From positions 13,543-45,542 of the forward strand of contig SHMX01000012.1 in NCBI GenBank assembly GCA_008080745.1: 32,000 nucleotides of DNA, written 5' to 3'. Each line of letters opens with the position of its first letter. Positions within the stretch are counted from its first letter, which is position 1. The DNA comes from Candidatus Thorarchaeota archaeon (GTDB lineage Archaea > Asgardarchaeota > Thorarchaeia > Thorarchaeales > Thorarchaeaceae). The position numbers were made by a program, and so were the translations under genes. The notes beneath the pieces are model-generated. The model did no database searches. It was not told the origin of the DNA and saw nothing but the letters and a program-made list of their open reading frames with translations. Below are positions 1,594 to 8,599 of this stretch, piece by piece.

Positions 1594-2646
1594 CTAGTCA
1601 ACCTCCAAGTCTTCCAAACCATCAAGTTCTGAGAAGATTTCCTCCTCGTCTAGTATCTCTGAAACACCCGGGTTAAGCACACGGAGTAACATTGCATCAG
1701 CTTTCTCAATGATAGCTTGACGCTTTTTACCCCCAACTGTTGCGCCAATTCTGATTGCGTGTATGTCAGGGTTGATTTCTTTCTCATCAATATCTTCAGG
1801 ACGCTCAACACGTACCTCGATGTATCCCGAGGGATGAAGTCCTCGCACAGCCTTTGGTGTTCGATATCCTGATGACACCATTGCAATGCGACCTTTCTTC
1901 TTCTCACGTGTGGCGCTATCGATACCACGAACTTTTCTCCAGGAATCACTAACTCGCTTCCATCGATGAGCTTGCTCATGACGGAAGGCAGGTTTCCGCT
2001 TTTTCATTTCGGCAGAGATTCTTCGAAGTCTAGGATCATGAAGGGTTTCCCTGGTTGGAAATTCGGGTTCTTCCTTCTTTTTCTTCTCTTTCTTCTTCTT
2101 CTTTGGTTTGGGTTTTGGTGTGGGTTCAGCCTTTGGTTCCTTCTTTGGCTTTTCCTTTGGTTTAGGTTTAGCCTTAGGTGCTTCTTCCTCTTCTTTGGGA
2201 AGCATCTTCTTAGCTGCTGCTATCATCTTCTTTGCAGTAGCAGCGCCAACACCATCCACTTTTTCTGCCAATTCTTTAGGATCTGCTTGAGATACCTTCA
2301 AGACCGATTTGTATCCAGCTGCTTTCAGACTCTCTACAGTAGAGGGTCCAACACCTGAAATATCTTGGAGTTCAGGCTTCTTTGTCTTCTTCGGCTCTTT
2401 CTTGGTTTTCTTAGCAGACTTTTTCGCTTTGGGCTTTGTATCTTTAGACTCTTCAGGAAGTAGCTTCTTTGCTGCTGCTATCATCTTCTTTGCAGTAGCA
2501 GCGCCAACACCTGAAACCTTCTCAGCCAACTCTTTAGGGTCAGCACGAGAGAGTTTCAGCACAGTCTTGTATCCAGCCTCTTCGAGGCTTTCAGCTGTGG
2601 AGGGGCCTACTCCCGGAATATCTGAAAGTTTGGGCTTCTTTGACAA
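1594..2646 (-). CDS. rpl32e: 50S ribosomal protein eL32 with two N-terminal (HhH)2 domains, Lys/Pro linkers and an acidic tail
   Basis: The C-terminal eL32 core is KKRKPAFRHEQAHRWKRVSDSWRKVRGIDS...GYRTPKAVRGLHPSGYIEVRV...IRIGATVGGKKRQAI. The N-terminal ~150 aa hold two copies of L.DI.GVGPST.ESL..AGYK.VLK.S.ADPKELAEKV.GVGAATAKKMIAAAKK. Confidence 0.95.
   Translation of the reverse strand: MSKKPKLSDIPGVGPSTAESLEEAGYKTVLKLSRADPKELAEKVSGVGAATAKKMIAAAKKLLPEESKDTKPKAKKSAKKTKKEPKKTKKPELQDISGVGPSTVESLKAAGYKSVLKVSQADPKELAEKVDGVGAATAKKMIAAAKKMLPKEEEEAPKAKPKPKEKPKKEPKAEPTPKPKPKKKKKEKKKKEEPEFPTRETLHDPRLRRISAEMKKRKPAFRHEQAHRWKRVSDSWRKVRGIDSATREKKKGRIAMVSSGYRTPKAVRGLHPSGYIEVRVERPEDIDEKEINPDIHAIRIGATVGGKKRQAIIEKADAMLLRVLNPGVSEILDEEEIFSELDGLEDLEVD
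2213..2511. repeat. Exact 41-bp direct repeat inside eL32 (2213-2253 and 2471-2511)
   Basis: gctgctgctatcatcttctttgcagtagcagcgccaacacc occurs twice, 258 bp (86 codons) apart, and encodes GVGAATAKKMIAAA in both HhH units. Confidence 0.95.
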
Positions 2647-3824: not shown

Positions 3825-4409
3825 TCAAAATAGATAGGTCCTCTCACGTTCTTTCTCAAGGATCTCTATTCCGAACTTTTCCTTGATGAAGACCATTGAT
3901 TCTTCTGGTGTCATTCTGTGTCTCCAAGGGACTTTCTGTCTCCTGCGACGTCTACGTTTCACTCTGAAACCAGGACGCTCAACACAGACTGTGATATTCA
4001 TTCCTTGAATTCCTAATTGTGGATCGTACTTGACATCGGGAATGTCAATATGCTCACTAATACCGAAAGCAAAATTGCCATCATCGTCCCAATTCTTGAA
4101 TAACAGTATGTTATCCTTGGCTTCCAAGGCTTTCTTGAGAAACTCTTCCGCCAAATCGTCTCGAAGGGTAACTCGGACGGCAATTGGCTCTCTTCGACGT
4201 ATACCGAAATCACGTACAGTTTGTTTTGCACGGGACACTACTGGAGTTTGACCTGTTAGGTCTTCCAAGATAGTAGTAGCTCTTTCAAGGACACCTCCGC
4301 CACCTGTACACATATCAACTACGACTTTCTCAATCTTGGGTTTTCTCATCGGAGAGTATTCCCATTCTTGGACGTATAGATCAGCGTTAGGTAACTCAAT
4401 CTCACTCAT
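3825..4409 (-). CDS. rpl5: 50S ribosomal protein uL5
   Basis: PMRKPKIEKVVV...LEDLTGQTPV...TVRDFGIRRREPIAVRVTLR...GNFAFGISEHIDIPDVKYDPQLGIQGMNITV. Confidence 0.97.
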   Translation of the reverse strand: MSEIELPNADLYVQEWEYSPMRKPKIEKVVVDMCTGGGGVLERATTILEDLTGQTPVVSRAKQTVRDFGIRRREPIAVRVTLRDDLAEEFLKKALEAKDNILLFKNWDDDGNFAFGISEHIDIPDVKYDPQLGIQGMNITVCVERPGFRVKRRRRRRQKVPWRHRMTPEESMVFIKEKFGIEILEKERERTYLF

Positions 4410-7706: not shown

Positions 7707-8171
7707 TTAGGCCACCTCTTCTAGTACAATCTCTACGTGTGTGGTGTTCTCAAAATATGGAGAACTTCTACCAAAGGCTCGTTCAATGAACGCCTTGTAG
7801 GTTCGTCCACGGTGTGCAGCTGCGTGCATGACTCTTAACCTGTCAATATCCAGGCCTTTGTTGTCAGCATTAGCCTCAGCATTCCTGACGATTTTTAGGA
7901 TCATCTGAGCGGGCTTCACCGGATGTCCACCTGAAGGCCATTTCTTCATTCCTGAATGGTGACCTCTCTTTTTCTTGTGGCGTCTGTAAGGAACCCATGC
8001 TTTTTCCTCAATTACGGCCTCAAGATAGTCTATTGCCTTGTCCAGCATCATTCCTTTGATGGCCTTACATACCTCTCTCGAGAACTTTGGGGAACAACGC
8101 ATATTCCTACCGCTAGCTATAGCGGTCCTATCTGGGTCAATGCCTATTATTGAATATCTATACGATGGCAT
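7707..8171 (-). CDS. rpl22: 50S ribosomal protein uL22
   Basis: YRYS...TAIASGRNMRCSPKFSREVCKAIKGM...VPYRRHKKKRGH...GGHPVK...NAEANADNKGLD...RAFGRSSP...HVEIVLEE. Confidence 0.97.
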   Translation of the reverse strand: MPSYRYSIIGIDPDRTAIASGRNMRCSPKFSREVCKAIKGMMLDKAIDYLEAVIEEKAWVPYRRHKKKRGHHSGMKKWPSGGHPVKPAQMILKIVRNAEANADNKGLDIDRLRVMHAAAHRGRTYKAFIERAFGRSSPYFENTTHVEIVLEEVA

Positions 8172-8360
8172 AGTGCCTCACTTCCGGTTATCTTGACTTG
8201 TGTGCGCTCACTTTCTGAGCAAGTCTTAGTCAAATGGCACCCTCGGACTAACCACTTCGAATCAGGACCCGGCACGCGTCTGCAGACGGTTCTCGCGAGC
8301 AGAACTAGCTGTCTGCACTGCTCCGTTGATTCTGAAACAGTCGTCTTTAGAGAGCAACTA
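8172..8360 (-). promoter_or_regulatory. Probable ~190-nt structured 5' leader of the r-protein operon
   Basis: Non-coding and comparatively GC-rich, with hairpins at 8281-8317 and 8195-8225. It lies between a TATA-like box (8383-8388) and the uL22 ATG. The 5' boundary is inferred from TATA spacing. Confidence 0.55.
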
Positions 8361-8382
8361 CTCAAAGCCCGACGAACTTCAC

Positions 8383-8388
8383 ATTTAA
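8383..8388 (-). promoter_or_regulatory. Putative TATA box of the r-protein operon
   Basis: The minus strand reads tttcgtaagccTTAAATgt: a TATA-like hexamer preceded by a BRE-like CGTAAG, downstream of the tRNA T-run. Confidence 0.5.
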
Positions 8389-8483
8389 GGCTTACGAAAG
8401 AACAGGAAAAATCAACGATTTTTGGAATGAGTTACCAAGTTCTCTGTATCGTTGGCTTTTTTGACGGAAAAACGGAGATGAAG

Positions 8484-8599
8484 TGGCGCCCAGGATGGGA
8501 TTCGAACTCATGCCTCCAAAAGGAGAGCAGCTGCCTGATCGTAAAGCCACTAGGCAATTCGATTCCAGGCTGCCGCCGTAACCGCTTGGCTACCTGGGC
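8484..8599 (-). tRNA. tRNA-Ser(GGA) with a 30-nt intron and encoded CCA
   Basis: Acceptor stem GCCCAGG/CCTGGGC, discriminator G and CCA; D-arm GCC-AAGCGGTTAC-GGC; anticodon stem GCAGC/GCTGC with CT-GGA-A; long variable arm CTCC-TTTT-GGAG; T-loop TTCGAAT. Confidence 0.95.
8533..8562 (-). other. tRNA intron at canonical position 37/38 (relaxed bulge-helix-bulge)
   Basis: The intron is TCGAATTGCCTAGTGGCTTTACGATCAGGC. CUGG (32-35) pairs with intron UCAG, the 3' bulge is GC|A38, and there is an internal GCC-TAGT-GGC hairpin. Confidence 0.9.

Follow-up and report, generated by a model that had tools for sequence, protein, structure and literature searches.

A conserved, covarying RNA element upstream of the uL22 ribosomal protein operon in Thorarchaeia, a candidate archaeal ribosomal protein leader

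The window, i.e., the whole stretch of 32,000 nt of Candidatus Thorarchaeota DNA that was analyzed, carries an operon of ribosomal protein (r-protein) genes that begins with uL22. All features of the leader and operon region lie on the minus strand of the window. The order of genes after uL22 is uS3, uL29, Rpp29, uS17, uL14, uL24, eS4, uL5, uS14, uS8 and uL6, followed by eL32 (fused to HhH domains), eL19, uL18 and uS5; they are tightly packed and uS5 runs off the window. Rpp29 and the genes from uL5 to uS5 were named by a Pfam search, and uL22, uS3, uL29, uS17, uL14, uL24 and eS4 by reading the translations, without a family search. Relatives of the uL22 open reading frame are found at the matching position in 40 of the 41 genomes searched. 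The gene for uS19 is located on another contig of the window's genome, and therefore uL22 heads its own operon in Thorarchaeia. The eL32 gene (positions 1594–2646, minus strand) encodes N-terminal helix-hairpin-helix domains that precede the L32e core (Pfam HHH_5, E 1e-28, two stretches).

Upstream of uL22, beyond a gap of about 315 nt, lies a tRNA gene (positions 8599–8487, minus strand). Its anticodon loop is followed by an intron of 32 nt, its variable arm is long, and it is probably a tRNA-Ser(GGA). It matches the Rfam model with 43 bits, above the gathering threshold; ARAGORN missed the same gene. The tRNA, followed by a tract of five T, is the upstream neighbor in the window's genus, and in most other genera of Thorarchaeia the neighbor is a MarR-like gene. 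The element described below stays with uL22 whichever of the two is present. The MarR-like gene encodes a protein of about 132 aa with 72% mean column identity and no Pfam hit, and is also found upstream in the sister family. An example is L007:845–1240 (plus strand); in the window's genome the gene lies outside the window, at C5:1035–1424 (minus strand). The AlphaFold model of the protein has a pLDDT of 86, and its top Foldseek matches are all of the MarR/PaaX type (TM approximately 0.45–0.5, E approximately 0.01). The protein might regulate the r-protein promoter. The gene that precedes it (L007:88–813, plus strand) is conserved in synteny and encodes a protein of about 242 aa with weak, below-threshold C-terminal winged-helix matches (DUF5817_CT, MCM_C).

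The approximately 250 nt before uL22 contain a very highly conserved block that extends from a TTTAAAT sequence to the Shine-Dalgarno (SD) region in all 24 same-family loci. An earlier note on this DNA, made from the sequence of the window, had pointed to a TATA-like box here. The window reads TTAAAT at 8388–8383, and TTTAAAT or a close variant (CTTAAAT, TTTAAAA) is kept in sequence and position in 23 of the first 24 family loci, so the claim holds; the exception is locus L008, which reads CTTTTAAGG. The family consensus of the box is TTTAAAT, and in all genera the box precedes the outermost base pair of the folded element by about 25 nt. From the usual archaeal distance between TATA box and start, transcription would begin at approximately 8358–8362. 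The coordinates of the features are collected in Table 1.

Table 1. Features of the uL22 leader region, with positions in the window
Feature	Positions	Strand	Remarks
uL22, first gene of the operon	7707–8171	-	ATG at 8171
Small SD/AUG hairpin	8164–8178	-	3' part of SD (GAGGCA) pairs with start-codon region (UGCCAUC)
SD region GGAAGUGAGG	8176–8185	-	conserved
P6, hairpin of variable sequence	8195–8225	-	between rod and SD
Whole conserved structured element	8235–8364	-	covariance model R1, 103.8 bits, E 5e-26
P0, 3' strand GAGGGU	8239–8244	-	closes base of rod
P2, 3' strand UGAUUCGAAGUGGUUA	8249–8264	-	pairs with 8343–8328
Internal loop, 3' strand GACGCGUGCCGGGUCC	8265–8280	-	family consensus nACGUGUGCCGG
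P3, 3' strand GUCUGCA	8281–8287	-	
P4 hairpin GUUCU-GCUCGCG-AGAAC	8289–8305	-	apical loop 8294–8300
P3, 5' strand UGCAGAC	8311–8317	-	pairs with 8281–8287
Internal loop, 5' strand AACGGAGCAG	8318–8327	-	
P2, 5' strand CGACUGUUUCAGAAUC	8328–8343	-	long-range helix, encloses stem 1 (P3 and P4)
P0, 5' strand GCUCUC	8350–8355	-	pairs with 8239–8244
TATA box TTAAAT	8383–8388	-	BRE-like purine-rich stretch just upstream

Secondary structure models, with helices defined by RNAalifold plus explicit counting of pairs, display a rod of about 125 nt made up of P0, P2, an internal loop, P3, P4 and the apical loop GCUCGCG. The first stem of the earlier note, TGCAGAC..GTTCT-GCTCGCG-AGAAC..GTCTGCA at 8317–8281, is P3 together with P4, and it is borne out by the family: the seven pairs of P3 are 99.4% paired with compensatory changes in three of them (70 distinct sequences), and P4 is 90.1% paired, with UUCUG and the loop letters G and C invariant. 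P2 consists of 16 pairs, is 93.4% paired and has compensatory changes in 11 pairs. A local 5' hairpin (P1) that would replace the outer part of P2 was rejected as the weaker structure, with 72% paired vs 92%. In the 5' strand of the internal loop, G43, C47, A48 and G49 are invariant, as is U50, which opens P3 (window position 8317); in the 3' strand A, CG and UGCC are invariant. The GG of the 5' strand pairs with CC of the 3' strand (G43-C99 in 70 of 70 sequences, G42-C100 in 67 of 70). The lower part of the internal loop differs in the window's genus. The basal helix P0 is found in the MFE folds of 22 species, and its duplex energies have a mean of -9.9 kcal/mol for the real pairs vs -5.9 for shuffles. 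In an alignment that was not fitted to P0, 75% of its cells are paired and double changes occur in all seven pairs. The second stem of the earlier note, GACTTG-CTCA-GAAAG-TGAG..CAAGTC at 8225–8195, is P6. It is present as a hairpin in most species with a variable sequence, of which the base GACUU...AAGUC is semi-conserved. P2, P0 and the SD/AUG hairpin are structures beyond those of that note.

The evidence for a conserved RNA structure is comparative. There is no thermodynamic signal in the MFE z-scores against shuffled sequences (+1.0 for the sense and -0.08 for the antisense strand). Among 70 distinct sequences, standard pairs occupy 90.9% of 2564 pair cells, vs 35–47% with slid partners, and compensatory changes are found in 22 of the 37 pairs. 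None of 500 shuffles reaches any of five measures of pairing. The earlier note had named covariation in homologous regions as a way to check its proposal, and these regions do show conserved, covarying stems. In addition, approximately 25 bases that are unpaired or flank a loop show no variation among 16 genera; the loop nucleotides are more conserved than pairing requires, as expected of a binding site. It is thus strongly supported by the sequence comparisons that the gap before the uL22 operon holds a real conserved folded RNA with its own promoter motif.

The region is rich in inverted repeats, and in 54 of 59 loci the gene directly before it, in the same orientation, is the MarR-like gene. 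Such repeats could represent a DNA operator that is bound by the MarR-like regulator. However, G·U pairs predominate at four positions of P2. On the opposite strand these would be C·A mismatches, and therefore the conserved structure is formed by RNA of the uL22 sense strand rather than by a DNA palindrome. The G·U pairs and the strand asymmetry are explained only by RNA pairing, and in the window's genome the MarR-like gene is unlinked, yet the element is unchanged. The G·U pattern largely refutes the operator, which we consider extremely improbable.

The covariance model R1 has one match only in the window's 3.16-Mb genome. Of 87 Thorarchaeia genomes, 81 contain a single copy according to R1; these represent 16 of 17 genera, and the copy is always just upstream of uL22. 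Of the six genomes missed, five are assemblies that are 60–88% complete and the sixth is the only genome of the sister family. R1 has no match in 124 genomes sampled from the other 26 Asgard families. A scan with the pattern of the invariant core over one genome per species (185,579 species) gave 70 matches, of which R1 confirmed 68, all archaeal. Those that are named are mostly Thorarchaeota, and the rest are listed as uncultured archaeon, Promethearchaeota and, once, Hermodarchaeota. The two matches rejected by R1 are bacterial chance matches. The single sister-family genome has a spacer of comparable length that also folds as a rod (z -2.6) and keeps UUCU..GCUCGCG; it is otherwise diverged. 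A search of metagenomes for further members of the sister family returned only the same contig.

The simplest reading of the rod is that it is part of a 5' UTR of about 190 nt that belongs to the uL22-uS3-...-uS5 transcript, with the start site placed from the TATA box. This reading is based on the position of the TATA box about 25 nt before the rod, the conserved SD, and the absence of both a U-tract and a second promoter in front of the ATG: no second TATA was found between the rod and the uL22 ATG, and a run of five U is absent from this interval in most species. The 16S rRNA 3' end reads GGAUCACCUCCU, and the conserved SD implies a leadered uL22 mRNA. The element ends 45–60 nt before the uL22 SD in all loci. 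The proposal of the earlier note, a structured leader of about 190 nt before the r-protein operon, is supported by the covariation, its 5' end again following from the promoter motif.

That note also offered an independent small RNA, which is made less likely by the same lack of a U-tract terminator and second promoter before uL22. The RNA would be terminated or processed from the 5' UTR and would act in trans as a rod-shaped RNP defined by its paired 5' and 3' ends (P0), and the promoter would merely be shared with uL22. Several properties are consistent with this: the rod is closed by pairing of the 5' end with the GAGGGUG segment, a property of many stable non-coding RNAs, the core is more conserved than the region adjacent to the SD, and there is one copy per genome, as for a housekeeping RNA. 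On the other hand, no U-tract follows P0 in most species, uL22 would be left without a promoter of its own while its conserved SD implies a leadered mRNA, and the spacing to uL22 is fixed despite the rearranged upstream neighbors. Identity with a known housekeeping RNA was rejected, as the genome's SRP RNA, RNase P RNA and 5S rRNA are all found elsewhere. A small RNA thus appears unlikely.

The interpretation that we prefer is that the element is a lineage-specific, cis-acting structured 5' leader of the uL22-headed r-protein operon, and we give it about an even chance. Transcription would start about 25 nt downstream of the TTTAAAT box, which would place the 5' end of the transcript at the base of the rod. 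The nearly invariant internal loop would act, together with the P3 base and the apical loop, as a surface for specific recognition, to which a ribosomal protein encoded in the operon would most likely bind when this protein exceeds free rRNA. Binding would lower the expression of the operon, either by reduced translation initiation at the uL22 SD and AUG, which would be held in a weak hairpin, or by a changed life-time of the mRNA. Both the binding of a protein and the direction of regulation are inferred here by analogy. The SD/AUG hairpin recurs in most genera, with stabilities of up to -7.3 kcal/mol, and could be the expression platform. In 42 distinct sequences its z-score averages -1.35 and falls below -1 in 27 of them, a modest support. 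A search for conserved pairing of the core with the SD gave none, the conserved core being about 60 nt from the SD, and anti-SD sequences are not enriched in the spacer, P6 included (mean z +0.35).

The rod begins a few nucleotides from the inferred 5' end, and the searches found no ligand and no link to an expression platform. These properties would also fit an mRNA element that needs no ligand, where a 5'-terminal rod would shield the long polycistronic r-protein transcript against 5'-to-3' decay or mark a processing site. A protective hairpin, however, needs no conservation of sequence, and here about 25 bases are invariant across 16 genera; we regard such an element as rather improbable.

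The leader could also sense something other than a ribosomal protein, e.g., a small molecule (as a riboswitch) or another RNA such as 5S rRNA. The invariant internal loop does resemble a binding pocket, but no similar riboswitch is present in Rfam, and riboswitches are rare in archaea. Sensors of this kind taken together are quite unlikely. The 5S version, where the apical loop would pair with free 5S loop D and expression of the operon that encodes uL5 and uL18 would follow the supply of 5S, is very improbable. Its basis is that the loop GCUCGCG is a 7 of 7 complement of the loop-D hairpin CGCGAGC at 5S positions 87–93, which are invariant in 30 family 5S genes, and that the sister-family motif GCUCGCGCA is a 9-nt complement of its own 5S sequence UGCGCGAGC. 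The operon encodes both of the 5S-binding proteins, uL5 and uL18. The match is nevertheless post hoc and only 7 nt long, and the 5S target is a closed GNRA hairpin. Furthermore, CUCGCGAG is a palindrome, and a match to CGCGAG is thus partly built in. One genus has the leader loop GCGCGCG without a change in 5S; the loops are otherwise invariant, with no covariation. If true, 5S sensing would represent an rRNA-sensing riboregulator, for which we know of no described precedent in prokaryotes.

Leaders of this kind commonly, though not always, resemble the rRNA site of their protein, and likenesses to rRNA and to other RNAs were examined. Words shared with the genome's own 16S and 23S rRNA are only chance-level 8-mers, and R1, run without filters against the loci of rRNA, 5S, RNase P and SRP, gave nothing below E 3.6. 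The CAGU-helix-AnACG junction was sought in the rRNAs and has no match there. No conserved likeness of the leader to 16S, 23S or 5S rRNA was found. One candidate, the 23S H98/ES39 insertion GGUGACAGUAACGUGUGGCUAGG, looked like the leader loop minus its hairpin and was rejected when it failed family conservation: the CAGU at that site is a strand of a covarying GNRA-capped stem, and ACGUGUG is not conserved. The insertion itself, which is 60 nt long, is a conserved feature of 23S rRNA in the family (L031:4424–4483 in the window's genome, and L138–L167), and its tip is a covarying 4-bp stem with a GNRA tetraloop (ACUG-GUGA-CAGU). Two other features of the rRNA genes were observed. The 16S rRNA gene, which lies outside the window (C2:589938–592348), spans 2411 nt vs a model of 1478 positions, and it must therefore contain roughly 900 nt of inserted sequence, either introns or expansion segments. 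In several family genomes (e.g., G012, G095, G096 and G077), the terminal segment of 23S rRNA, about 40 nt, is present in up to nine copies scattered over several contigs; these may represent a repeat derived from the rRNA 3' end or its processing stem.

A partial likeness to the sarcin-ricin/loop-E motif is found in the lower internal loop, where 44 of the 70 distinct sequences have CC(G/A/U)G(U/A)A opposite (G/A)A(A/U)GG. GGUA, the most frequent form of this module, is also the variant that the sarcin-ricin loop of 23S rRNA has in the family. In 26 of the 70 sequences, including those of the window's genus, the module is absent. The invariant upper loop of the leader matches no known module. 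The family sarcin-ricin loop reads GGUACGAGAGGAAC in 25 of 26 genes and the archaeal consensus is AGUACGAGAGGAAC, the difference being a G at the equivalent of E. coli A2654 (L031, approximately 4300–4330; L138–L167). With SRP RNA (E. coli 4.5S, ffs) the leader has in common the words CGGAAGGAAGCAG (two species) and CGUGUGCCGG (family consensus), in the same order. We treat this likeness as a coincidence: the topology differs, the letters AGCA are variable among the leaders, and neither word is present in the SRP RNA of the genome itself. None of the Rfam SRP families matches the stretch searched, and blastn of the element against E. coli genomes gave no match. Regulation by L7Ae and K-turns in 5' UTRs (PMC5539422) is similar in that it is based on an archaeal 5' UTR element, and the leader would likewise bind a ribosomal protein. 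In many members of the leader family the rod base carries CUGA...GA. A K-turn between P0 and P2 was nevertheless rejected: the pattern agrees with 22 of 43 sequences, in most cases with a 4-nt loop, and the sequence of the window is not among them.

The gap has no credible match in Rfam 15, even at E values up to 10, and literature searches returned no description of the element. We therefore classify it as a new candidate among archaeal r-protein leaders, from the Asgard group, and it would be suitable as a new family in Rfam. Archaea have very few known cis-regulatory RNAs, and in the literature searched none was found described for Asgard archaea, which are the closest prokaryotic relatives of eukaryotes. 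The leader heads an operon of at least 16 genes, which encode ribosomal proteins and the RNase P subunit Rpp29, and it would provide a concrete handle on the balance of ribosomal protein and rRNA synthesis in an Asgard lineage. The approximately 25 invariant bases make it a clean problem of RNA-protein recognition.

In bacteria and some archaea, r-protein operons are controlled by structured leaders (PMC7247131). The archaeal candidates listed are only four, L4-Archaeoglobi, eL15-Euryarchaeota, S15-Halobacteria and S15-Methanomicrobia (Eckert and Weinberg 2020, PMC7247131). The earlier note had suggested that the leader is new, and it is indeed absent both from Rfam 15 and from these published candidates (PMC7247131). 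It has no sequence or structure in common with the Rfam 15 families, and it differs from the known r-leaders in that no rRNA mimicry or terminator was detected. It heads a uL22-first Asgard operon, which none of the known r-leader motifs does. With the archaeal candidates and the bacterial S10/L4 and spc/S8 leaders it shares a conserved, covarying structure in the 5' UTR of r-protein genes, and like the known r-leaders it is restricted to a lineage and has strongly conserved loop bases.
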